The notes under the pieces: model-generated
Told to the model about the DNA's origin: nothing
What the model saw: the letters and a program-made list of their open reading frames with translations, nothing else
Database searches by the model: none
Position numbers and translations under genes: made by a program
Source: Pachysolen tannophilus NRRL Y-2460
Lineage: Eukaryota
Assembly (NCBI GenBank): GCA_001661245.1
Contig: KV454017.1
Coordinates: forward strand, 899,903 to 963,902
DNA: 64,000 bases
Direction of reading: 5' to 3'
Shown: piece by piece, positions 12,143-63,688 of the stretch
How the letters are laid out: each line of letters begins with the position of its first letter
How positions within the stretch are numbered: position 1 is the first letter of the stretch

Positions 12143-12406
12143 NNNNNNNNNNNNNNNNNNNNNNNNNNNNNNNNNNNNNNNNNNNNNNNNNNNNNNNNNN
12201 NNNNNNNNNNNNNNNNNNNNNNNNNNNNNNNNNNNNNNNNNNNNNNNNNNNNNNNNNNNNNNNNNNNNNNNNNNNNNNNNNNNNNNNNNNNNNNNNNNNN
12301 NNNNNNNNNNNNNNNNNNNNNNNNNNNNNNNNNNNNNNNNNNNNNNNNNNNNNNNNNNNNNNNNNNNNNNNNNNNNNNNNNNNNNNNNNNNNNNNNNNNN
12401 NNNNNN
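12143..12406. other. Assembly gap (N run) flanked by (TA)n microsatellites
   Basis: N characters with TA repeats on both sides. Confidence 0.99.
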
Positions 12407-16287: not shown

Positions 16288-16614
16288 NNNNNNNNNNNNN
16301 NNNNNNNNNNNNNNNNNNNNNNNNNNNNNNNNNNNNNNNNNNNNNNNNNNNNNNNNNNNNNNNNNNNNNNNNNNNNNNNNNNNNNNNNNNNNNNNNNNNN
16401 NNNNNNNNNNNNNNNNNNNNNNNNNNNNNNNNNNNNNNNNNNNNNNNNNNNNNNNNNNNNNNNNNNNNNNNNNNNNNNNNNNNNNNNNNNNNNNNNNNNN
16501 NNNNNNNNNNNNNNNNNNNNNNNNNNNNNNNNNNNNNNNNNNNNNNNNNNNNNNNNNNNNNNNNNNNNNNNNNNNNNNNNNNNNNNNNNNNNNNNNNNNN
16601 NNNNNNNNNNNNNN
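16288..16614. other. Assembly gap (N run)
   Basis: N characters followed by poly-T. Confidence 0.99.
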
Positions 16615-16651
<37 letters not shown>

Positions 16652-23831: not shown

Positions 23832-24326
23832 TATCTCGATTCCTTAATTATACCTTCAATATAAATTCTCCACAACTTATCAAATCTATAATACCTTTCT
23901 TGTTAATTATGTCTTTTCGTATTTTTTGTATTCAATTAAAAAATTTTTTAATCGTTTTTGCCACGACAAAAAAAAAACAACAGAAAAAAAAATTGAAAGA
24001 AGGAAAGAAAAGAGTTGTAAAAGTTGTATTATAATTATAATAGAGAAAAAAAGAAGAAGTAGTTTAAAGGATCAATCAGCAGATAGAGAAATCATTATTT
24101 GAGTTGAAGAAGTAGATATATTTCTCAGTAGTTTGTTTTTGTTTTCGTTTTTGGATTGGATTGGCTTGTGGAGGAATTGCGAGATTTTATTTATTTATTT
24201 ATTTTTAATTGATATTGAGTTTGAGTTATAAAAATAAAATTAAATTTTTTGGTTGTTTTTTTTGGTTGTTTTTCATCAGGTAAAAAAGATTGAAGTATTG
24301 AGAATATTGGTAATACTATTTTTCGG

Positions 24327-24725
24327 ATGTCAAGTAATAGCGATAGGGAGATGTTACCTTCAGCGGATGATCAAGATGCGGCTGCTTTATTGATGTTATT
24401 TCAAAGTCAACTGCCAAGAAGTCTGAGGCAACAAGTTGTGATACCCAATGAAGAGCAACAACCAATGAATGATTTTAATCAACATCAAATACACAGAATT
24501 CAAACAAATATCGATAATGTGAATCATAGTTATTCTATAACATTGTCTGGTAATTCAAAAACACCTTTTTCTCCAAAAGAAACTTCAGAGAGAAGTACTC
24601 AAATTGTTCCTTCTGTTGTTCAAACACAATCTTCTTTACCTCAATCACACCACCGACAGACAGCATCGGGTTCTTCCTCTTCATCATCAAGTTCCTCGTC
24701 TGCATCGTCTTTAACCTCAGCATCA

Positions 24726-24756
<31 letters not shown>

Positions 24757-27700
24757 GCAGTAGCAGCAGTAATGCTAATCATTCGAGATCCAATTCAGGC
24801 AACAACAACAATAATAACAACAACAACAATAATAATTTTTCTACATCTCCTGGCCCAGCTGCTGCTGCTTTGGCTGCTGGTAACAACAGAGACTCTAGGA
24901 ATCAGAGCAGTAATATCAAAGCTATGGTTGCAGCAGCAGCTCTAGCAGCAGCAGCAGCAACACCTTTGCCATTGTTGAATCACAACAATAATATCAACAG
25001 CAACAACAACAACATTAATAATAATAATACTAATAATATTGAAATTGCTGAAGATGATTTGAAATTAAAAGAGAAAAATATATTACAGGGGCTAATCAAG
25101 GAATTGGCATCTGATGCTCCAAAGGCTAAAGTACAAGAAAAAGAAAAAGAAGAAGAAAAAAATGATGATAATGTGGTGATGGAAACGAATGATCATGCTT
25201 CCCTGGAACTTGGAAAACCTGATGAGCCAAACAATGAAACTGAAATAAAAATCGATACAGAAATTCAAGTTGAAAAAAATGATGGTGAAGTTCAAGAAAA
25301 TGTGCCAGATATAGCACTTGATGAACATGCAACACTAAAAAAAGAACCAGACCATGCGGAAAGATTGGATACTAATGAAACAGATGTAGACAATAACAGT
25401 GATGCTGAAGGTGAAATTGAGGCTGAAAAATCAAAGACTCCAGACTTGGCTAATAAGGTTGTTGCAAAGGAAGAAGATGTAACAGAAAAAGAAAAAGAAA
25501 ATAAAACTGGAAAAAATGATTTGGAAAAAGAACAAGAAAACCAAGCTCTTGATTATGATAACAAAAGTAAAAGCCCCAGTAAAGATTCAGTGCTGGAGTC
25601 AGATAAAGAAGAAGACAAAAAGCAACAGCAACATCAGCAGCAGCAAATGGAACAGCAACAACCACAGCAGGATCAACAACAACGGAAGGAAGATGATGAG
25701 GATGTGGTGGTCCAGGAGGAAGTTCAAGCTGAAACAGAACATGACCCACAGGAGAAAGAAACTAATTCAGGAAATGAAAAGCCAATTGATACTTCGTATT
25801 ATGTTGATGCAGATGCAGGTGTTATAGGGTGCGTATGTGGGTATGATATAGATGATGGATACACAATTCAATGTGATAGATGTTTCAGATGGCAGCACAC
25901 CGTATGCATGGAGATAGATAATGACGATGTTCCTGATGATTATTTATGTTATTTATGTGATAAGACAAGAAAAGTGGATGCAGATAGAGCAAGGGATATT
26001 CAAAAAGAGAATTTGAGACGTTTATCGAGAAGGAAACGTTCAGCTAATAATAGTAATAATATTAATGTTGTTGAGGACTCATCTACAATAAAAGATGAAG
26101 CGAATGTGAAAAGGAGATCATCCAGTGTAGCCAATGACACCGATAACATCGACTCTGTAGGAATGGATTCCAAGCAAGGTTCGTCTACTGGTAACAATGA
26201 ACAAAAAGATGCTCAAGGCCCAACTGGATCTTCTAGATTCAAGAAGCAGAAAACTAAAAAGGAAACTCCTGAAATTGATGAAGGTAATATTATACCAGAT
26301 GCATCGGAAACATATGAAGGTACTTATTTTTCAATCACTAAATTAGAGTTTAAAACTCAGAAAACAAAATCTATTTTTGATAAAGTTGTGGAAACTAGCC
26401 TTGATAAAAAGAATAATGTTAATCTATCAGCCATAACAGGGTATACTTCAAATGAGATAAATAAAAAACTTGATCAAATGAGGGTTAGTGTCAAATCGGT
26501 TCAAAAAGAACCTCTGAGCAATAAACTGGTTAGATTTGATGGTGTTACCAAATTAGGTTTATTTGTTGAGAATAATGCGAATGAAAACGATTTTTTGATA
26601 GAAGTTGTTGGTCAAGTTGAAACAAAACAAAAGTATATTAATGATTCTAAAAATCATTATAACGTTTGGGGTGTTGTTAAACCGAATGTTTTTTTTTAAA
26701 AGATTTACCATTTATTATAGATGGAAGGTATTCAGGAAATATTTCGAGATTTATTAGAAGGTCATGTAATCCAAATTGTGAAGTTCGGACTGCAATAGCA
26801 CAAAACGATTATTCAATAAGATTTATAATAAAGCCAGTCAAACCAATTAAGCAAGGTTCAGAGTTGACTATTCCATGGGAATGGGATGAACGTCATCCTC
26901 TTTATAATATCATTCATGGGAAGAGTTCATATGATGATCTTGATGCATCGCAGAAGCAAATTTTAATATTATCGATTGAAACTATATTAAATGGGTGTGA
27001 TTGTGCCTGTAAACCAGGTAGTAATGATGATTGTTATTTTGCCAAGGTAAAGAAATTAATTCATACTTTATATCGTTCCACAAGAAAGGCAAATGGCGTT
27101 TCTACCTATGGTAATAATTTGAGCAAATATTCGGATATTTATAGATCATTAGATGAAAGTTATCATGTTCCAATTAATGATAGATTAGATCAAAGATACT
27201 TGAAGTTATTGAATTCAATAGATTTTGCCAAAGAACGATCCATACTATTGGACGGAGATGAAAACACTGGGAATGGTATTGTCAATGGTAAGGATAGCAG
27301 TGAAGAACCTGATAAGAATATCAATAACAATAACATTAACGATAACAATATTAATAATGATAACAATAATAACAACAACAACAACAACAACAACAATGAT
27401 AATAATACGAATGGCATAATTGACAGAATGGCTGAAGAAAACGAGAGTATGTTTATTGTTAAAAATAGGAAATCCAAAGATTCTATATTGGACATTAAAC
27501 CTGAACTATTACCTTACAAGTATAGATTAGTCCAGAAAACACGTTTACAAGACTCTGAGAAAAGGGATACCAATAAGACCACCGAGGCTCCTTTAACAGC
27601 AGACCCTCTTGTATCGAAGGATGATCTACCTATCCCGATACTGATAGTGAAATCTGACAGCAGGCCCACCTTGTCTGTATCTCTGTCAGCTCCACCAATT

Positions 27701-27886
27701 TCAATGGTCACAGAAGGTTCGAAACTAAACATCTCTGACAACAAATTGATTTCACCTTCAAGTGCTTTGAACACTAACATCAAAAACGAAGTAGACAGAT
27801 CCTCGAGCTCCTCATCAATCATGCAATCCCCACCAATCAAGAAGAAGTTGAGTCTAAGAGACTACATGAAGAGCAAAAAGAAGTGA
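24327..27886 (+). CDS. SET3: PHD + SET domain protein (Set3/Set4 family) interrupted by a 1-nt frameshift at the T9 run 26689-26697
   Basis: PHD IGCVCGYDIDDGYTIQCDRCFRWQH; SET continues in the -1 frame (DLPFIIDGRYSGNISRFIRRSCNPNCEV...ELTIPWEWD); C-terminal KKKLSLRDY. Confidence 0.85.
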
Positions 27887-48982: not shown

Positions 48983-49225
48983 ATTAATTAGTTAGATTTT
49001 TTATATAGCATTTTTTTTTTTAAATTCTATTATTATCAATACTAATCAATTTTTTCTTATTCTAAACATATCAATTCATTCATTCATTATAAATCTTGAA
49101 TAAAACTTTGAAATCTTTAATACCTTTAAAATCCTAAAATTTCCTTTTTTGATAAACACCAGCTAAACCCGAAGAAACGTTTTTTTTTTAAAAGCAACAA
49201 ATTATCTTCATCTTTCATAAATATA

Positions 49226-49260
<35 letters not shown>

Positions 49261-49328
49261 GGAATAAATTGAATTTGGTCTTCTTTCTGATTCTTTCGTT
49301 AGAGATTTTGGAATTGAATTCCAAAAAA

Positions 49329-52300
49329 ATGGAAAAGAAGAACGACGGGAAGAGTGGGGGTGATGGGCCGAAACAAGACAGTGATATATATACTTGGCCA
49401 AAATTTGAATCTCAATCTAGATCGCAGTTGTCTGTACCGCCGTTCTTTTCACATCAACTGTCTTTACCTCCAGTACTGAAAGTTTATGAACATGCAAATA
49501 GTATAGGGGAAAAATCAATTGGGGAAGCTGCTGCTGGAATTGCCGCCGATCCCATCGCAATATTACCTGAACCTGAAGATTCCTCCGGCGCAGCCCCCAG
49601 CAGCACCGGCACCAGCAGCACCGGCAGCACCAGTACCACCAGTACCACCAGCGGAACCACATCATTTACAGCAGCAACAGCAGCAGAAACAGTCCCCGCC
49701 ACGGCCACTGCCGTCACTGCTGAGATCTTTTTATGTCTTGCCTCCGCCGTTTCGGAATCAATTCCTGCTGCTGTTTGGAAGTTTTGCGAAAACCGCAAGT
49801 GCAAATACCGGTACCAGCGGCAGCGGCAGTGGAAGTGCCATTGCCAATGCCAATGCTAATATGGATCGCCGGTCAAGCACAGAAACCATTCCCCAAACTT
49901 CTTCTCAAACCCAAGCGTTTCATCTACATAACCCAATTGACTCTGCTGTACTAGCACCAGTACAAGCACTAGAACCAGAAGCAACTAATAATAGAGATTC
50001 AGGATTCTCAAAGGAACGGCGAAGGTCAAGCTCAGCTGAGTCTGCAAATGAAAGTTCAAGAAAGACAAGAAAAAGGTTATCAGTTTCTTGTAAATTATGT
50101 CGGAAGAAGAAAATCAAGTGTGATAGAGAAAGACCAATTTGTGGATCATGTAAAAAAAATGGAATACCAAGTCATTTGTGTATTTATGATGATTCACCTT
50201 GGATAAGCTCATTAGTAAAAGAACAGAATTATCATACTGAAATTGAACATTTAAAACTGGAAAATATAAAATTATCAAAATTAATTGAAGAAGAAGATTT
50301 GAAAATATCAAAATTAAAAAATAATTACCAGGATTTATATGGTAAAGATGAAATAACCAAAGTCCAAACTACAAATACTATTAAAGCTAAATCAGAACAA
50401 ATATTAAACAATATAAAATCACAAAAATTAGATATAAAAAATTTTGTAACAATAAATTCAAATGAAATACCACTGAAAAATTTTGCAATATTGACTTGGC
50501 AAAATTTCCAATATCAAGATAAAAATTTACAAAAATTTGTACCTTATTTTTTTGAAAGCTGGAAAATTCAATATGAAACAGCAAGAGATAGTGACGTGAG
50601 GAAACCTAGTACTGAGTTATTTAATTTTAGTGAAATATTCAAAGTTATTAACTTGAATTGTACAAAATATACAAATATTGATCATTCAAATTTAAAACCA
50701 AATAAAAATGATTTTTATGGGAAAAAATTACAAGAATTATCAAAAGCTTTACCATGTTTTAAAATTCTTGAAAAAAAATTTAAGAATTATTTTAAAATGA
50801 ATTTTGATGTACTTATTCATAAGTTTTTCAATAATGATATTATGATAAAAGATTTTTATCGAATTTTTAAGAAATCAAGAAAAGGTGGAGTAGAGATTAA
50901 TGTTTATGAACCATCTAGAGATTACCATATAGAGTTATTGAAACTAGCAACAATTTTGATTTGCATAAAGATTGGTATATTGTTTAGTGATAATGATAAC
51001 ATTAATGAAGAAGTTGATTTCAATGATCCTGAAAATTTGTTAGTCAAATATGCAATTGCATGTATATTTTTATCAGATTGCGTGCATAGGCCTTCTATAC
51101 CTTCGATTAATTTTTTGACTCTTTTGGCGTTATATAAAATTTATAGTGAAGAGGATCAAGTAGATCTTTTATATTCTGAATACTCAAATTGTGATTATTC
51201 AATAATTTCAACACTTCTTTTAAATATGTGTGTGGGCTTGGGCTTATATAAAGAATATGATGATATTAATGAAAGTTTAAAAAATGAAAATGATTGCAAT
51301 AATAATTTTATAGATCGTGAGTACTTGAAAAATATTTGGAAAAATTTGATGTTATCAGATATTGCAAGTTGTTATCATTCTGGGCTATCATTATTATTAC
51401 CAGGTCTTGATGATTATACTAAAATCAAAACGAATTCACCAACAGATCGAGGTTTAAAAGATGTAGTTTTCATAAGACATATATATAACAAATTTTCAAT
51501 TACATCTGAAGAGCAAGGAGAAGAAATGACTAGATTAGATTTGGAAAAAGAATTGAACAATGTTTTCCAATTTTTCCATGATGTTTATGGATTAGAATCC
51601 AATTTTTGGCAAAACGTTGAAGATTGTACTTCTTTATCTATAAAATCTTTTAAAATTGCAAAAATATTAAGTTTATTGGGATTACTGGATTTACTGGCAT
51701 CATTAGAGTATTTATTATATTTATCATATAGTGATCAAAATCATCATTTAAATGCAAAATATGAACATCAAGAATTAGTTGCAACTGAGGAAGACCAAAA
51801 ATGCATAAATAATTTAAAGAATAAGTTTATGAATTCATCTTTATTACATTGCATTTTTTCCCTAAGAATTATGGATTGGGTTTGTGATCAAGAACTAAAC
51901 AGTTCAAATAAAATATTCCTTGATAAGGCTTCGTATATTGTTGCAAAGATGAAAATGAAAAATTCGATAATGAAGACATTATCTATTTTATTTTCTACAA
52001 TTTTTTCGAATTCTTTGTTTGATGAATATGGTTTAGTTTTTGACAATTGTCAAGACTTGGCCAATAATAATCCAGTAGAAGAAGATTTATTTGATATGAG
52101 TTTAATTCAATTAGAAGAATTAAGTTTTAAGATGAATGATAGGGATATTTTATATTTTAAAAAAAATTTCTTGTACAAGATTTCCAATTTATTATCAAGT
52201 TTTTATGAAAAGATCCAAAAAATCAGTTTATTTACTAATGATTCTTGTTGGTTTAATGTTTATAAAGAGTATCATTACATTATCAACTATTTAATTTATA

Positions 52301-52446
52301 ATAAGAGGAAATTTAATAACAATGGACAAATTAATTATGATAATCTTTTCAAAGTCAATGATGAAAACCACAATGAAAAACTATTAAAAGTTTTTGATTT
52401 CCCCGATTATTTAAGCATTAAAGAGCAATTGGAAAAAACAATTTAA
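49329..52446 (+). CDS. Zn2Cys6 transcription factor; probable ATG at 49329 with a +1 frameshift somewhere in 49507-49859 (alternative start 49861)
   Basis: RKRLSVSCKLCRKKKIKCDRERPICGSCKKNGIPSHLCIYD; upstream ATG ORF overlaps the main ORF in another frame. Confidence 0.8.
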
Positions 52447-53799: not shown

Positions 53800-54157
53800 T
53801 CTCAACTCAACTCCTACAATAATACCCAACTATAATTACTTTTATCTAAAACTCAACTTCTACCTACACACACAGAAAAATTTTTCACCTGCTTTAAAAT
53901 AAGAAGAGGAAAAAACAGGTCGTGAATAAAAACACAAAAATTCCAAAAAATTTTTTTTTTTTTTTTTTTTTTGAATTCCAAAAAAAATTGTGCTGATAAG
54001 AAGAAGAAGAAGAAGAAGAATTACTGTGTATAAGAAGTGTAATTTAGCTAATTTAGCTATTTTTAGTTTGATTGAATATTGGATAGATTAAGTAATATAT
54101 ATATATATATATATTTATATGTATATATATATATATATTGTGATTGATTGATGGAAT

Positions 54158-57100
54158 ATGGTAGGAATTGGGTTTCATAAGTCGAGGAGTGTTAGTAGTA
54201 CGAGGGACTATAACCGTAATAATAATAATGATTCATCTGAGATCGCGCAGCAGGCTGCGAAATTGATCTTTCAAAAACCTAGTTTGGCAACAAATCAACA
54301 ACTGCAATTTCAACAGCAAAAAGGTAACTCGGCGGTACAGTCTCTGGTGGTGCAGCCTTCTGGATCGCAAATATCGATTCATTCGTATGCTACGAATAAG
54401 ATTATTAATATAAATAGTAAGAATAATAAGGTGACAACAACAGCGGTTGTAGGTACCAGCGGCGGTACCAACGGTGGTGCGGGCGGAGGCCCGCCCGCAC
54501 ATGTACCCACTACTGTACTTTCTCCTGCGAACGTTCCCGCGAACGATCCCTTGGCGGTGGCGGCGGCTACAGCGACAGTGCCCGTCACGGGCACTGTGGC
54601 AGGGAAAAACGTTGTACCAGGTACTCCTGTACTGGGTACGCCTGGTCTGGGCCATGCACTTACGCACACGCCCGGTGCCACGCCCGCTACGACTCCTGCT
54701 GCCACTCCTACTCCTACACCCACGTCGGCGGTTTCATCTTCGCGAAATGGATATTTCACTAATAACGCGAGGATTGGAGGCGGTACCAATAATAATAACA
54801 ACAATAATAGTAATAATAATGGTGTTGGTGGTACACAACTGGGAGTCAAGAAAAGGCAGAGTGTTATTGGTCAATCGCAACAGCAACAGCAACCGCCGTT
54901 GCAACATCAGAATAGTGCACTGCTGGTGAAACCATCGTCTGCTGCATTGGCGGCTGCATCGGTGGTGGCTAGAAATAATCCTCAAGCAATGGTTGCAGAA
55001 AATCAATTGGTACTGGAAAGTGTGCGGTCGCGCCATAACTCGTTGAGACAACTGCAACATCAACAACTGCAGCAACTGCTGCTGGCTTCAGCAGAAAGAC
55101 CTGCAAAAATTGTACCTGTTCCTGATGAAATTAGGAAAATTTCACCTTCAGAACAACGTCCAAAACAGAAATCAGTTACTTCTATGGAATCCAGAGCAAC
55201 TGGAAGTTTTAGTGATGCATTATCTTATGTGAAAAATGGTAATGGTAACTCGAGCGCTTCACTAATCAAGAGAACAAATACCAATAATAAGACTGCAAGT
55301 AATAGTAGCAATATTAATCTACCGGTAATAATGACAGACTTGCATCAAGAAGATGAAGATGATGATGAAGATGATGATGACGAAGATATTGGCCAATCTC
55401 TGATTGGAAATGATCAAGATAGATTTTTGAAAAAGAAGTTTCAGGATTCTTTGCTGGCTCCAAACAAAGGAGGTGGATCTGATATAGATTCCCGTGATCC
55501 TTCTCCATCACTGAAACCACATCCATATATATCTTTCTTAGAAAATGCAAATGATGATTCAAAAAATTCTTTTCTTACAACACCATTTACAAAATCGGCT
55601 CCACTGCCTGCTTCTCCAAGGTTTGAAATTGGTAACTTGAATTTCACAAATAATAATGATAGTTCTGAAAATTTTGACAACCCTGCAAATGGTTACACTA
55701 GCGCAGTAATGTCTAGAACCTACACAAATTTAAGTAACATTTCAAATATCAGTGATTTCAATAATAGTAATAGTAATAGTAATAATAATAATAATAATAA
55801 TAATAGAGATAAATATAGAGATAAAGATGTCAAGGAAGATTATTTTTTCAAAGCTCCTATAAATTTTAAATCTGATGATTCGAAAAATTTGGCAACTAGT
55901 GAACCAGAAGCTGATGCCATCACTAGTTCTCCAAGAAAATTGAAAAGGAAACCTCCTCCTTTGAAGGAAGTGTCACAGGATGAACTTCCCCAGGATGAGA
56001 AATTTCTGCAGGATCAAGTCCTCGATGCTGAACTGCTGTCACAGGGAAATAATGTCATGAGCAATTATTCGAATAACAGTAACAACAATTCAACACAATA
56101 CTTAAGGCCTCCACCAACTTTTAATGAAAATGAAATGGACAATAAAAGTAGCGATTCAATAGTTTCGGATTCATCCAAGATTTCATGTCAATTAGCATCA
56201 AATTCCTCATTTTTAAATAGTAGTCAAGGAAGTTTAGTAGTTGATGAAGGAGATAAAGAACAAATAGCGAAAGCTTCACCTTCAAGGAAAAAACCTCCAC
56301 CTGATGTGGATGAGGAGATACAGCAGCGTGATGAAAATTCTCAAGAGCTTAATGAGGAATTTCCCGGTAATGGAGATGGCCATGAGATTCTGTATGAGTG
56401 CAATGGTTATCATAATGATAATATTAACTCCAATGTTGAATTCATCGATGGTGAAGTTATTAATGGTGGTGATCAAGAAAATTCTGAAGCTGATGTGTTA
56501 CCAAGATATCCAACTTATACACCAACAGATAATGGGTATCATATTCATCCTCATATTCCAATGAATAAGCAAACCAAGAAAATATTTAAGAGGAGTGCAA
56601 AATCATTACTTGGTAATATTAAGCATAATCCAAGTAATCCGAATTTTTCTTCTTCATCATCGTTTCAGCAATTACAAATTTCAAATCAATCACCAAATGG
56701 TAAAAGTCCTCCTCTGCAATATTATAAGAGCTCAAATCAAAGTAATAGTAATTTGAATCCAGCAACTATTTCTACTACAAGCATATTAATTCCACAACAT
56801 ACAACAAAGTTCAAGACTACAATGAGAAAAGATAAAAATAGTAAAAAATTTAATGAGGATAAACCTTGGAAACATCATAATGATGCCAACATAATAACTG
56901 AACAAGAAAGGAAAAGATATGAAGGTGTTTGGGTTTCAAATAAGTTGTTATTTGTGGATTTAAACCCTGGTACTAAGGCCTCAATAGGTACTCAGCATGA
57001 GTCAATGACTGCAGCTACAATTCTGGCATCTCTGAAAGAACCTTCTTCTGGATTATTGATGCATGGTTTAATAGTAAGAGAAATATGGAAAAGATCAAGA

Positions 57101-57334
57101 TTACCGTTTGAAACTTTAGAAAAAATTTATGATTTGGTCGATATTAAAACTAAAAACGGATTTTTAACAAGAGAAGAATTCATCGTTGGAATGTGGTTAG
57201 TAGATCAATGTCTTTATGGTAGAAAATTACCAAAATTCGTTGCAGATGAAGTATGGGAAAGCGTATATAGTACTGGGATAATAAGTTCCAATATCAACTT
57301 TGGCAAAAAAAATAAATCACGAAAGGGATTATAG
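54158..57334 (+). CDS. IRS4: EH-domain protein of the Irs4/Tax4 family
   Basis: FKTTMRK..KKFNEDKPWK.H, ERKRYEGVWVSNK, VREIWKRSRLP.ETL..IYDLVD, EFIVGMWLVDQCLYGRKLP. Confidence 0.85.
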   Translation: MVGIGFHKSRSVSSTRDYNRNNNNDSSEIAQQAAKLIFQKPSLATNQQLQFQQQKGNSAVQSLVVQPSGSQISIHSYATNKIININSKNNKVTTTAVVGTSGGTNGGAGGGPPAHVPTTVLSPANVPANDPLAVAAATATVPVTGTVAGKNVVPGTPVLGTPGLGHALTHTPGATPATTPAATPTPTPTSAVSSSRNGYFTNNARIGGGTNNNNNNNSNNNGVGGTQLGVKKRQSVIGQSQQQQQPPLQHQNSALLVKPSSAALAAASVVARNNPQAMVAENQLVLESVRSRHNSLRQLQHQQLQQLLLASAERPAKIVPVPDEIRKISPSEQRPKQKSVTSMESRATGSFSDALSYVKNGNGNSSASLIKRTNTNNKTASNSSNINLPVIMTDLHQEDEDDDEDDDDEDIGQSLIGNDQDRFLKKKFQDSLLAPNKGGGSDIDSRDPSPSLKPHPYISFLENANDDSKNSFLTTPFTKSAPLPASPRFEIGNLNFTNNNDSSENFDNPANGYTSAVMSRTYTNLSNISNISDFNNSNSNSNNNNNNNNRDKYRDKDVKEDYFFKAPINFKSDDSKNLATSEPEADAITSSPRKLKRKPPPLKEVSQDELPQDEKFLQDQVLDAELLSQGNNVMSNYSNNSNNNSTQYLRPPPTFNENEMDNKSSDSIVSDSSKISCQLASNSSFLNSSQGSLVVDEGDKEQIAKASPSRKKPPPDVDEEIQQRDENSQELNEEFPGNGDGHEILYECNGYHNDNINSNVEFIDGEVINGGDQENSEADVLPRYPTYTPTDNGYHIHPHIPMNKQTKKIFKRSAKSLLGNIKHNPSNPNFSSSSSFQQLQISNQSPNGKSPPLQYYKSSNQSNSNLNPATISTTSILIPQHTTKFKTTMRKDKNSKKFNEDKPWKHHNDANIITEQERKRYEGVWVSNKLLFVDLNPGTKASIGTQHESMTAATILASLKEPSSGLLMHGLIVREIWKRSRLPFETLEKIYDLVDIKTKNGFLTREEFIVGMWLVDQCLYGRKLPKFVADEVWESVYSTGIISSNINFGKKNKSRKGL

Positions 57335-57702
57335 ATTCACAATATAATCAATCATCTTAGATACTCTAGATCTAGAATAATGCTACTCAAATGTGCTTTC
57401 AAGTTTTATATAGTTTGAATTTAGAAATAGCAATTTTTCACAAACTATTTGCATAGTTTATGCGCGCCAATTAAATAACTAATTATATTTCAACATCACC
57501 TTCTTCTTATCTTCTTTTTTTTTTTTATTATTTTAAAAAATATTTATTTTAATAGTAAAAATAAAATATATTGGTTTAAACCTTTGTCTCTTCACTTTTC
57601 AGGATAAGAACTCTTGAAGCTAGTCCTTTGGCATTTGATTGCTATTGGTGAAGTAGAAAATAGATTGAACCTTTAGTGTGTGTGTGTGTGTTTTCTCGCT
57701 TT

Positions 57703-58593
57703 TTAGGAAAGAACAACTTGTAAGATACCAAAACATAAATTAACACCAGAATGAATAAATTCATCAATTGTAGAAGTATTTGGATCATTCAGAGTGGAAA
57801 TTATTGATTCTGTAGATTTTGAAGCAATTTCACTATGTAATCCTAAATCTGTTCTTAACCTACTATTGGCTGATGAATTACCAATATTCAAACCATCAAA
57901 TCTATTCTTTCTCATCTCATAAACTTTTTCACATTGCTCAACTATTTGAGCATCCCTTTTCTGTTGACTTGTTAATGGTAATGGAATATCTGCAAATTTA
58001 TTAACATTAGAAGCATCTGATGATAAACTTATAGAAGTGACATCAGGTAATAAACTCAAAGAGCTACCAGAAGCTGTCTTCTTATTATCTGGGCTCATCA
58101 TACTCTTGTGAATTTCATCCAATATATAATAAGCACGCCTTAACTTATACAACGCCTTTGCACTATCAATAACACTCTCTGATAATAACATAGTTAAAGC
58201 ATTCAACAAAGTCGCTTCCGCATGAGCAACAGCATACTCTGTTCCTGGAGGATATATTGAAGAAGTCTTCAACTTCAATTTTTCATTATTATTCTTTGCT
58301 TTATAAGATAAATTTTCAGCCTCAGCTAAAGTTTTTTGAGCTTTAATCCTTGATTCTTCTTCAAAACCCAAAGTAAATTCAATAAATAAAACTACTCCCG
58401 TGGCTAATTTATATATGGCCTCATCTTTCCCTTCAATCAAAGCTAAACCTTTCAGTGGTCTATCATCTAAAACATAATCCATGGCTGTAAGACATATTTC
58501 AAAATCTTGAGCTTGCTTTATAATTTTGGAAACCTGTTCCTCAATCGACAACTCTTTTGTTCGTTCCTGTTTTAAACCCAACACACGTAACAT
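57703..58593 (-). CDS. IML2: N-terminal half (296 aa) of IML2/TTC39-family protein, lying inside an inverted segment
   Basis: MLRVLG..QAQDFEI.L.AMDYVLDDR, YPPGTEYAV..AE..LLNAL.MLLSES, TIDEFIHSGVNLCFGILQVVLS, then an abrupt stop. Confidence 0.85.
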   Translation of the reverse strand: MLRVLGLKQERTKELSIEEQVSKIIKQAQDFEICLTAMDYVLDDRPLKGLALIEGKDEAIYKLATGVVLFIEFTLGFEEESRIKAQKTLAEAENLSYKAKNNNEKLKLKTSSIYPPGTEYAVAHAEATLLNALTMLLSESVIDSAKALYKLRRAYYILDEIHKSMMSPDNKKTASGSSLSLLPDVTSISLSSDASNVNKFADIPLPLTSQQKRDAQIVEQCEKVYEMRKNRFDGLNIGNSSANSRLRTDLGLHSEIASKSTESIISTLNDPNTSTIDEFIHSGVNLCFGILQVVLS

Positions 58594-58742
58594 CCTTCTT
58601 TCCAACTAAGACTAGATAGATATTGTTTTCAAACCAAAAAAAAAAAATAAATATTATGTTATGCTCCCAGCTTTGATATATTGATAAAACCACAAATAAT
58701 GAAATTATGATTAGACAAAATAAGAAAAAATAAGTAAAGAGC

Positions 58743-60167
58743 ATAATTCCACCAACAATAGGGAAAGTTTTAGCAGTTGTTGGATTTAAAGGTTCTAGAG
58801 AAGATGGATTAAGACTGGTGTGGAAATCAGCTGAAAAGAGAAACATTCATGGTGGTATTGGTTTATTGACTTTATTAGTTTTTTATGATGGTCCTTTTCA
58901 ATTTACTGATGTTGATTTTGATGTTCCTTCAGCTACAGAAAATCGTCAAGATCAATTTTCAAATGGTAAGATTAGTAATGTTCCTTCTTTACATTCTTCT
59001 ATTTCAAAACATTCACAGAAAGATCTAACTGAATTGAAAAAGACATTATCAAGAAAGAAGATGGATTTGGAATCAAGAGCTCAAGCAGGCTATGGAGAAC
59101 CAACTTTATTACATCCAGGGAAAAAATTAGAATCATCACTATTAAATGCAAGAGCATTATTCCCACATAGTGCTTTATGGTTATTACAAGAAGGAAGAAT
59201 GTTAGCTTCAAAAGGCCGGTTGGAAGAAGCTGTTGAGTTGATGGATAGTTTAACACGTAAAATTGAGATGAAACAAGTGGAAGCTTTATTAGTATTTGAT
59301 AGAGCGATGATTTTAATTTTCATGAATAAATATGAAAGGGCAGCAAAAGATTTTTTAAGATTAGTTGATATCAATGCATGGTCACATGCTTTATATTTTT
59401 ATTTTGCAGGAGCGTGTTATTTAGAAAGTTGGAGAATGTGTGAAACTAAATTAACAGTTCCAACGGGTAAAGATGATATTGATTTATCAAAGAAAGAATG
59501 GTATAAAGAACAAGCTGAAAAATATTTATCAAGTGCACCTGAACAAGTTGGTAAAAGAAAATTTATGTCAAAGCCAATGCCATTTGATAGATTTTTATTA
59601 AGAAAAACTAATAGTATTAAGGAAATTTCTAAAAGAAAAAATTTATCATTAGTAGATTCTTGTGGTACTTCATTAATTCATGAACTATCATATTTTTGGA
59701 ATGGTTATAATAGAATGCCTGAAGAGAATTTAAAATTGGCTATTAAATTATTAGGTTTCAATGCAGATCCAGATTCAGAATATGCTTTATTAAATTCTGA
59801 TGGGAAAAGTTATTCCAAAATTCTTCCTGAAAGTAAAGATGAATCTATGATAAGGTATACTTTACAAGCAATAACATTAAGAAGATTAGGCAAAATTGAA
59901 GAAGGTCGAAAAATTTTAGATTCAAATGTCTTGAGTGAATTTGTATTACCAAATAACAAATTTATAAAAATGACCAATGATCCATGGTTATACCCAATTT
60001 CAATGTATGAAAGAGCATTGTTTTGTTGGAAAGAAAAAAGTGTGGATGGTTTGGAAGATCTGAAAGAATGGTTAAAAAATGCAAGTGAATACAGTGATGA
60101 TTATGAACTCAGTACAAGAGTTGGTATGAAAATCAAAGCTGCTACAGACAGACTAGAAAATTTATGA
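58743..60167 (+). CDS. IML2: C-terminal half (474 aa) of IML2/TTC39-family protein, with no start codon at the junction
   Basis: IIPPTIGKVLAVVGFKGSREDGL, RNIHG, FYDGPFQFTD, FPHSALWLLQEGRM, KPMPFDRFLLRK, YFWNGYNRM, DDYELSTRVGMKIKAA; in-frame TAA at 58731. Confidence 0.85.
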   Translation: MIPPTIGKVLAVVGFKGSREDGLRLVWKSAEKRNIHGGIGLLTLLVFYDGPFQFTDVDFDVPSATENRQDQFSNGKISNVPSLHSSISKHSQKDLTELKKTLSRKKMDLESRAQAGYGEPTLLHPGKKLESSLLNARALFPHSALWLLQEGRMLASKGRLEEAVELMDSLTRKIEMKQVEALLVFDRAMILIFMNKYERAAKDFLRLVDINAWSHALYFYFAGACYLESWRMCETKLTVPTGKDDIDLSKKEWYKEQAEKYLSSAPEQVGKRKFMSKPMPFDRFLLRKTNSIKEISKRKNLSLVDSCGTSLIHELSYFWNGYNRMPEENLKLAIKLLGFNADPDSEYALLNSDGKSYSKILPESKDESMIRYTLQAITLRRLGKIEEGRKILDSNVLSEFVLPNNKFIKMTNDPWLYPISMYERALFCWKEKSVDGLEDLKEWLKNASEYSDDYELSTRVGMKIKAATDRLENL

Positions 60168-60759
60168 AACTTTATAGATATTATTAAATCATTTGAATCA
60201 TTTTTCTCCATTTCATCAAACGTTGTATATAGATATAATAATATAGGAAAAACTACAAAAAGAAACATCATTTGATGCTACATCAAACAATGCTATGTCA
60301 AACAAATTATGTATGTAAGTTCAAAGCACGTGAAAAACAGGGATTTACCATATTATATTTCTGATTGAAAAGGTGGTTGGGTTGTTCATCAATTTTGCTA
60401 TTTGCTGAAAGCAGATTTCTGGTAGGAATAACTGACACCTTATAGCCAATCGGAATTGCAACCAAAACCAAGAACCATTTTTCTCTTTTTTTTTCACTTC
60501 CCTTTTTTTTCTTTTTGGTCAATTGTCCTTAACTAACTGACTAGTCTTTTCATTAGTTCAACTTTAGTTCAATTGAGGAATTTAGTAATTGTTCTTATAA
60601 ATTGAATTGTATTATTGAAGTCTAGACTCTTTAAAAAAGTTGAGGTATTAATCATTTTCCACAGTTTATAAATTGAGGAGAATTTCCCAATTGATTTCTA
60701 AAAGAATAACCAAAGACCAATAATTATAATTGTTAATAATAATATAATCTCTTGTAAAG

Positions 60760-61393
60760 ATGGTTTCCTATAAAGTTGGTGGTAAGTATTGAATTATTTC
60801 AATTGAATTGATATTTGTATAACATTTTAAGTACTAATCACTAATATTAAATATTAATATTAATACGTATTAAATTTCAATTTATAGATAAATTTCCAAC
60901 TAAAGTTGATTTCCAATATATTCCATACGTACCGGAAAATTCTGATATCTTGGCTTGTTCAATTCCAACGGTATATAGTCTTTCTAAAAAATTACCAGGT
61001 AGAACTGTTGTTATTGTTTCTGTTCCTGGTGCTTTCACTCCAACTTGTACTGCAGACCATATTCCACCTTATGTTGCCAAGATCAAGCAATTACGTGCCA
61101 AAGGTGTTGATGATGTTGTTGTTATAAGTGCTAATGATTCTTTTGTCTTGGCTGCTTGGGGTAAGGCATTGGGTGCTAAAGATGAAATTATCTTTGCATC
61201 CGATCCAAATGCTCTGGTTTCCACAGAATTAGGTTTACAAAAAGATTTGACCGCAGTAGGTTTCGGCATTAGAACCTCCAGATACGCAGCCATTGTTGTT
61301 GATGGCGTTATCAAGTACTTGGAGGAAGAACCGGGCCAAGGTGTCAGTGTCTCTGGTGTTGAATCGATCTTATCGGCCCTCGATAACATCTAA
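60760..61393 (+). CDS. AHP1: Prx5-type peroxiredoxin (Ahp1/Pmp20 family); intron 60782-60887
   Basis: GTAAGT..TACTAAT..TAG intron gives MVSYKVGDKFP..FQYIPY...ACSIP; VPGAFTPTCT..HIP, ND.FV..AW, RTSRYA. Confidence 0.85.
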
Positions 61394-61705
61394 TTAAAGA
61401 CCGATTTTTTATATGGATTTTTTTCTATTTTTGCTTTTTTTCAGTCGATTCGACTTGATTCAATAGAAACACATTGCTATCTAGTTAATTCAAAATCTCC
61501 TCTTTAATTTGAGAACCTTTTCTCTATATAAAAAATCCGAGAATTATTCATCTTGTAGTAATATTAGTTATTATTAGTAGTAGTAGTGTGTGACTTCAAA
61601 GTAGTAGTTAAAATGTATATGATAAAGTGTATTCCGGTGGTTTGATAGATAACAATTTATAGATTATTGTAATTGATTGGGATAAATTTGGATTTTTGTT
61701 AGGAT

Positions 61706-63688
61706 ATGTCTGATTTGGAATATGGAGATGAAGGGGAACATGAGTTTCTCTGCTTAGATGATGATGATGATTTGGATGAAGAACAGGAAGAAATAGTTTC
61801 GTTTGAGGAGTTTTCAGATTCTGGTTCAGTTAGTGATTTTGATTCTAAGAATATATCTGGGGAAGATGAGGACGATAATGATCATGATGATAATGATGAT
61901 GAGATTGATTATGATGTTGGTGAAATCAGAAGAGAGGGTTATAATGATGATAAGGAGAATAGTAGCGTACTGTTAAATAACATGTTAGGATTACTGAAAA
62001 GAATTGATTATGAGCTGCTTACATGGAAGGATCTTTTAAAAAAATTGAAAAATGATATTGATCAAATAGTTCAAGTATTGAATATTTCTGAAGATGATTG
62101 TTGTTTATTGCTTCAATATTTTAACTGGAATAAAGGTAAGATGATGGAAAGTTTTATGGATAATAATGAAAAGACAAATGATAATGCAGGATTAAATGGG
62201 AATGATTTTATTGATATTGAAAATAGGATTAAACAAGCAGAGAAAGGTACATTATGTCCAATATGTTGTATGGAATCCGATAATGAGATCAATCCTTTGT
62301 TAATTTTTAGTTTACCCTGTGGTCATGGATATTGTATTGATTGTTATATCCGTTATATAAAAGATAAAATCTTTGCCAATAATGCATTAATCAAATGTCC
62401 TGAATATACATGTAAATTAAATTTAAAACCATATAGAGATATCAAGATGATTAGTGATTATATGGTTGAAAATAAGATATTACCAGAACTTAAAATTAAA
62501 GATGAAAATATTACAAAAGAAAATGGGAATCGTTCAAAGACAAATAATTCAAACAGAAATGGGAATAATTCAAACGATTATGATTGGTCTTCATCTGAAG
62601 ATGAAGATGAAGATGAAAATGAAAATGAACAAGGTCAATATAGAGAAGGTAGAAATTTTAAAACTTCAATATATAAGAAAAATCCATTTATACTGGAACC
62701 AAAAACTTTATTTGAAAAATATGAAGAAAATTTAATCAAAATCTATGTTGAAAATCATTCAAATTATAAATGGTGTCCATCCCCTGATTGTAAGGGTTTA
62801 GTATTATTGGAAAATTATTCTAAAAATTATTTAAAAGAATTATCAACAGAAAATAAAAATAATCTTATACCAATAGTTTCATGTCCATTTGATCATTCTT
62901 TTTGTTTTTTGTGCAATTTTGAAAATCATTTACCTGTACCTTGCTGGGCTGTAAGATTATGGATTCAAAAATGTAAAGATGATTCAGAAACAGCAAAATG
63001 GATTGATGCAAATACAAAACAGTGTCCGAAATGTGAATCTGCTATTGAAAAAAATGGTGGATGTAACCATATGACATGTAAGAAATGTAGATACGATTTT
63101 TGCTGGATTTGTTTAGGAGTTTGGTCTAGTCATAATAATAGTTATTATAATTGTTCAAAATATAATGAAGAAGGAAATAAAGAAGTTAGAAACAAGCAAG
63201 AAAATTCGAAAAAATCTTTACAAAGATATTTACATTATTATAATCATTTCATATCTCAAGAATCTTCAATGAAAGGTGATAATATGTTTTGCTCAGATAT
63301 TGAAAATAAAATTATGAAAATTCATGAAAACGTGAAAGATGATGTATCATGGATAGAATTACAATTTTATAAAGATAGTGTTAATACGTTATTAAAGTGT
63401 AGACGTACTTTAAAATGGTCATATGCTTTAATTTATTATCTTAACTCTTCAAATTTTACATCCATTTTAACTGATAATCAGCTTTATTTAAGTAATAGCG
63501 TTGAAAAATTATCCAAATTATTTGAAATTTTTAAACCGGAAGAGATATTGAACAAAAAATTGGAATTTATTAACGTTTCGAATTATTTATTGAAAAGGGA
63601 AAAGGCTTTAATTGAATGTGCTATTGATGGAATTAATAATGGTGGATTGACTTTTTCAGTCAATCACAAGGGTCATGAGGTGAAGTAA
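61706..63688 (+). CDS. HEL1: Ariadne-family RBR E3 ubiquitin ligase
   Basis: Acidic N-terminus, RING1 CPICC..CGHGYC..C, IBR KWCPSPDC, RING2 TKQCPKC...IEKNGGCNHMTC..C..FCWICLG, Ariadne RYLHYY. Confidence 0.9.
   Translation: MSDLEYGDEGEHEFLCLDDDDDLDEEQEEIVSFEEFSDSGSVSDFDSKNISGEDEDDNDHDDNDDEIDYDVGEIRREGYNDDKENSSVLLNNMLGLLKRIDYELLTWKDLLKKLKNDIDQIVQVLNISEDDCCLLLQYFNWNKGKMMESFMDNNEKTNDNAGLNGNDFIDIENRIKQAEKGTLCPICCMESDNEINPLLIFSLPCGHGYCIDCYIRYIKDKIFANNALIKCPEYTCKLNLKPYRDIKMISDYMVENKILPELKIKDENITKENGNRSKTNNSNRNGNNSNDYDWSSSEDEDEDENENEQGQYREGRNFKTSIYKKNPFILEPKTLFEKYEENLIKIYVENHSNYKWCPSPDCKGLVLLENYSKNYLKELSTENKNNLIPIVSCPFDHSFCFLCNFENHLPVPCWAVRLWIQKCKDDSETAKWIDANTKQCPKCESAIEKNGGCNHMTCKKCRYDFCWICLGVWSSHNNSYYNCSKYNEEGNKEVRNKQENSKKSLQRYLHYYNHFISQESSMKGDNMFCSDIENKIMKIHENVKDDVSWIELQFYKDSVNTLLKCRRTLKWSYALIYYLNSSNFTSILTDNQLYLSNSVEKLSKLFEIFKPEEILNKKLEFINVSNYLLKREKALIECAIDGINNGGLTFSVNHKGHEVK

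Follow-up and report, generated by a model that had tools for sequence, protein, structure and literature searches.

The window, by which we mean the whole stretch of 64,000 nucleotides of Pachysolen tannophilus NRRL Y-2460 that was analysed, contains an IML2 gene that the deposited record presents as two halves on opposite strands. Upstream of it lies a gene for a protein with a C-terminal EH domain, which we take to be IRS4-like, and downstream lie a peroxiredoxin gene and a gene for a RING-between-RING E3 ligase. The features of the locus are the following:

54152..57334, plus strand: upstream neighbour with a C-terminal EH domain (PF12763 EH, E 1.3e-07, residues 956-1025).
57335..57704, plus strand: IRS4-IML2 intergenic DNA, which is T-rich at 57497-57567 and carries a (TG)7 tract at 57677-57690.
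57705..58743, no strand assigned: inverted segment of 1,039 bp, delimited by opposite-strand joints in contigs of the public sequencing runs X1, X4 and X5.
57706..58593, minus strand: IML2 N-half, codons 1-296 (M...QVVLS), from the open reading frame, the PF10300 match and a 296-aa database record.
58594..58743, minus strand: IML2 5' flank (5' UTR and proximal promoter), inside the inverted segment and containing a run of 12 A (A12).
58743..60167, plus strand: IML2 C-half as read, 474 codons and a stop, from the open reading frame and the PF10300 match.
60851..61393, plus strand: peroxiredoxin (Redoxin/AhpC-TSA; PF08534, E 3.3e-35), between IML2 and the ligase gene.
61703..63688, plus strand: RING-between-RING (RBR) E3 ligase (Ariadne/HEL1-like), with IBR, UBA_ARI1, Ariadne and RING matches.

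As read in the window, the N-half is a minus-strand open reading frame (57703..58605) with its ATG at 58593, which ends ...QVVLS with a last codon at 57706-57708, and the C-half is a plus-strand frame (58734..60167) in which IIPPTIG runs from 58743. The initial annotation had described a gene split in this manner, with the ATG at 58593, a QVVLS end at 57706 and a resumption with IIPPTIG at 58743, and the reading of the frames bears it out; it had also remarked that both halves are free of internal stops, and none was found in the translation of either frame. The stop codon of the N-half, a TAA at 57703-57705 (minus strand) directly after QVVLS, straddles 57704|57705 and is a product of the left junction. 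The assignment to IML2 was confirmed in both halves by a Pfam search: PF10300 (Iml2/TTC39) matches the 296 residues of the N-half over profile positions 2-182 (E 2.2e-38, 132.6 bits) and the 474 residues of the C-half over positions 184-467 (E 3.1e-72, 244.2 bits), both above the curated cut-off of 22.2 bits. The halves are consecutive, non-overlapping stretches of one PF10300 profile, and equally of one alignment of homologues.

When the segment is reverse-complemented by script, a single open reading frame of 770 amino acids results. This had been claimed for a flip of positions 57706-58742, and the scripted reverse complement of that interval does give it. The restored protein is colinear, end to end, with all eight full-length homologues (721-781 aa) with which it was aligned (alignment A1): the N-half occupies the columns up to 319 and the C-half those from 320 onwards, and no homologue of the eight shows a gap at this point. 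Identity to these homologues amounts to 46-52% over the N-half and 49-63% over the C-half. The flip also places IML2 on the plus strand, like the EH-domain, peroxiredoxin and RBR ligase genes, a co-orientation that had been foreseen for the first and the last of these; the counterpart of this gene order in S. cerevisiae is presumably YKR019C-YKR017C.

The orientation of the segment can be followed in public sequencing data. Sampled 31-mers of 57200-59300 were compared with public runs, and five of these, X1 to X5, each contain 0.95 of the words; X1 to X4 represent one sample, and X5 a different sample and study. Logan contigs of X1, X4, X5 and X6 were aligned to 56000-61000, and these being contigs, rare variants drop out of them. 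A check of sequencing data for orientation had been proposed, and at the contig level its outcome is uniform: in the three informative runs (X1, X4 and X5, thus two samples and two studies), 57705-58743 and its flanks are on opposite strands in every case, and the bridging contigs are found only in the un-inverted form. In X1, one contig of 6,851 nt spans the whole of 56000-61000, on the minus strand at 56000-57704, on the plus strand at 57705-58743 and on the minus strand again at 58744-61000. In X4 and X5, a 4,831-nt contig crosses the right joint unbroken, which speaks against a second arrangement being present at any sizeable level in these two libraries, and the left joint is crossed by a contig of 334 nt or 317 nt. 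The shorter sides of the contig joints measure 126-255 nt. Among the contig pieces listed, all but seven of the total, none crosses either junction of the window colinearly, and no loose contig end was seen at either junction. For X6 (organism C), the sole contig is one of 245 nt that falls within the segment (57821-58065) and is uninformative as to orientation.

Besides the flip and the length of one A run, X1, X4 and X5 show no other letter difference from the window over 5 kb; they are therefore of the same strain, or nearly so. The word counts extend the comparison to the remaining runs. A script predicts a 31-mer share of 0.962 for a run that lacks the words covering both junctions and the full A12 run, to be compared with the 0.95 observed. 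A run carrying the junctions of the window should score higher, and X1 to X5 all stay at 0.95; this equal share weakly suggests that X2 and X3 likewise lack the junctions of the window. In the intergenic DNA between IRS4 and IML2, the contigs of all three aligned runs break or were skipped at the low-complexity, T-rich stretch.

The contigs also fix the boundaries of the segment. Their joints are 57704|58743 and 57705|58744, with zero ambiguity and no other letters, in X1, X4 and X5. The boundaries proposed at first, 57706-58742, thus leave out one base at either end, and the 1-bp ambiguity that had been suspected at the joint disappears. This single base decides the identity of residue 297. 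Since base 58743 is part of the inverted segment, codon 297 really consists of a T (the complement of 57705) followed by 58744-58745, so that a script reads TTA (Leu) with the contig boundaries versus ATA (Ile) with boundaries at 57706-58742. All eight homologues have Leu here (column 320 of alignment A1). The conserved Leu at restored residue 297 therefore provides independent support for the contigs, rather than the window, as showing the native sequence. The converse, that the window is right and that the three Logan assemblies each mis-oriented the segment, could appeal to nothing beyond the general fallibility of contigs. It would need three assemblies from two samples to have gone wrong identically, at one and the same pair of bases, with no repeat as a cause, and this shared error would in addition have to yield a seamless 770-aa frame with the conserved Leu; we give it a vanishingly small probability.

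Several observations bear on the quality of the record itself. The A12 run at 58636-58647, inside the inverted segment, counts 16 A (A16) in X1, X4 and X5, whose contigs have AAAA added behind 58635. It is a homopolymer miscount in the record, and its position within the very segment that is flipped points to error, not biology. The window moreover contains two runs of N, at 12143-12406 (264 bases) and at 16288-16614 (327 bases), and the record is therefore a scaffolded draft with sized gaps.

Other oddities are found elsewhere in the window. A run of 35 T (16615-16649) directly follows the second N gap. On the plus strand, a PHD-finger frame (24294-26699) and a SET-domain frame (26681-27886, SET profile 39-102) overlap, and the reading frame changes precisely at a run of nine T (26689-26697). 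They probably represent one gene broken by a homopolymer-length error at this run; in the frame ending at 26699, a profile search did not detect the N-terminal part of the SET domain alone. Further on, two long open reading frames on the plus strand (49221-49859 and 49507-52446) cover a Zn(2)-Cys(6) transcription-factor gene and sequence upstream of it. They have about 350 bases in common, read in different frames; the overlap might be due to a frameshift error or to an intron, or have arisen by chance in low-complexity sequence.

We consider that the inversion arose as an error in the deposited assembly and is no property of the organism, with a probability of about 0.85, and that IML2 is most likely an intact, ordinary gene of 770 codons on the plus strand of Pachysolen tannophilus. 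At the stage of assembly, scaffolding or gap filling, a piece of about 1 kb would have been set in the wrong orientation; the obvious candidate is a small contig, or a gap fill, that was put in backwards. The annotation pipeline would then have called two truncated genes, giving the 296-aa protein and a 442-aa 'partial' one. Judging from the contigs, the junctions of the record would be without any read support. Among the points against an assembly error is that a de Bruijn assembler does not easily yield an inversion that is precise, gap-free and devoid of repeats. Mis-assembly was one of three readings offered by the initial annotation, and it is the one that is supported, the un-inverted arrangement alone being what that annotation had named as the mark of an artefact; the two others, a loss-of-function inversion and a heterozygous or switchable allele, are not favoured by contigs that are un-inverted in 3 of 3 informative runs.

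The first of these would be a genuine and recent inversion, independent of repeats, in the culture or DNA behind the record, where IML2 would have been knocked out, the stocks behind X1, X4 and X5 being free of it. The junctions of the record are clean and show neither N nor overlap, and neither half has decayed, as expected of a very recent event; X1, X4 and X5, moreover, are possibly not the data from which the record was built. IML2 may also be dispensable: cells without Iml2 are described in a review (PMC5947121), according to which clearance of inclusion bodies is impaired in them. However, the inverted junctions of such a loss-of-function allele were not found in the contigs of X1, X4 and X5, all three of which show the un-inverted form with no other letter difference over 5 kb. 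The word share, identical in X1 to X5, and the homopolymer miscount in the same segment likewise speak against it, and we hold this reading to be unlikely.

The sequence around the breakpoints is relevant to how an inversion, if real, could have arisen. Of 276 inverted pairs, the 25 longest include no inverted repeat that joins the two breakpoints. Within +/-40 nt of these breakpoints, complementary words reach at most 7 nt, a length attained in 472 of 1000 shuffles. There is accordingly neither microhomology nor an inverted repeat at the breakpoints beyond what chance provides. The lack of a flanking inverted repeat had been noticed initially, and both the listing of inverted pairs and the shuffle test agree with it; the (TG)n tract pointed out near the left end is present as well, as the (TG)7 tract, 14 nt before 57705.

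These results weigh on the second biological reading, a reversible inversion of the 5' half of IML2 that would turn the gene on and off in a mixed population, the record having caught the 'off' state. Flanking inverted repeats are absent, and in X1, X4 and X5 the contigs traverse the joints unbranched and in one orientation only. The inversion splits the coding sequence in the middle of a codon and leaves the promoter with the N-half alone; we know of no switch that is built in this way, and we count this against the idea. On the other side, a rare second form would drop out of contigs, and Pachysolen tannophilus does possess a real invertible region, the flip/flop region at MAT, as is reported (PMC6692504). 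In addition, contig depth at the left joint is below that of the flanks: the short contigs there have a word depth of 125, against 207-223 in the flanks, for X4, and of 74, against 133-140, for X5, that is, about 55-60%. We would attribute this lower depth to the bordering T-rich stretch and to the 16-base homopolymer. A switch at IML2 appears highly improbable to us, and we would give no more credit to a variant in which a repeat-independent, possibly reversible inversion of the 1,039 bp silences IML2 in a subpopulation and the low depth at the left joint is its trace.

The consequences of the split can be followed into the protein databases. The N-half is identical to a 296-aa record for Pachysolen tannophilus NRRL Y-2460 in NCBI and UniRef. 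The C-half, with CUG codons read as Ala (table 26) as is the case in this species, agrees with the NCBI record ODV93962.1, a protein of 442 aa from the same strain named 'hypothetical protein PACTADRAFT_45631, partial', in 438 of 439 aligned residues outside a gap of 35 aa. ODV93962.1 begins three residues before IIPPTIG, hence at the junction. As both halves are separate NCBI protein records, the split has spread to the protein databases, where it is annotated as two genes. Among proteins of 260-830 aa, a full-length Iml2 of Pachysolen tannophilus was not found, the 442-aa partial protein being the only one at high identity and the next standing at 63%. The model behind ODV93962.1 also omits 35 residues that are open and in frame in the window (58743-60164), presumably as a modelled intron. 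In the homologues, the region to which these residues align (columns ~397-445) is variable and rich in gaps, and we find this intron doubtful.

In comparisons across the CUG-Ala clade, the two records could pass for a gene loss, a fission or a pseudogene. The practical value of the analysis lies in the correction of a public reference, which would consist in re-orienting 57705-58743, mending the A run and merging the two records into one Iml2 of 770 aa. More generally, this draft contains structural as well as homopolymer errors, and its other odd features should not be interpreted until they have been compared with reads. A second public draft of this strain is mentioned in PMC4937558.

Three comparisons place the locus among known systems. 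The first concerns the protein. Beside Iml2/YKR018C and the TTC39-family TPR proteins of budding yeasts, the restored protein has nothing unusual, with a match to nearly the whole of PF10300, and judged on its sequence it would be an ordinary member of the Iml2/TTC39 family.

The second is the MAT flip/flop segment. In PMC6692504 it is described as an 8-kb segment with 2-kb inverted repeats, whose inversion was shown experimentally. It shares with the IML2 segment the organism and the occurrence of a DNA segment in two orientations. In contrast, the IML2 segment is 1,039 bp long, has no inverted repeats, cuts a coding sequence, and shows one orientation in the contigs.

The third comparison is with errors of assembly. 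Inversions form a standard class of assembly and scaffolding error (PMC3702249, PMC4262078), counted in the GAGE, GAGE-B and scaffolder benchmarks. GAGE-B treats an inversion as an error once it measures at least 1000 bp (PMC3702249), and benchmarks of scaffolders count tens of inversions per data set (PMC4262078). Unlike typical inversion misassemblies, the IML2 segment has junctions that are gap-free, base-exact and without a flanking repeat. Like them, it appears to be a piece of about 1 kb mis-oriented in a scaffolded draft, and it was exposed by independent data.
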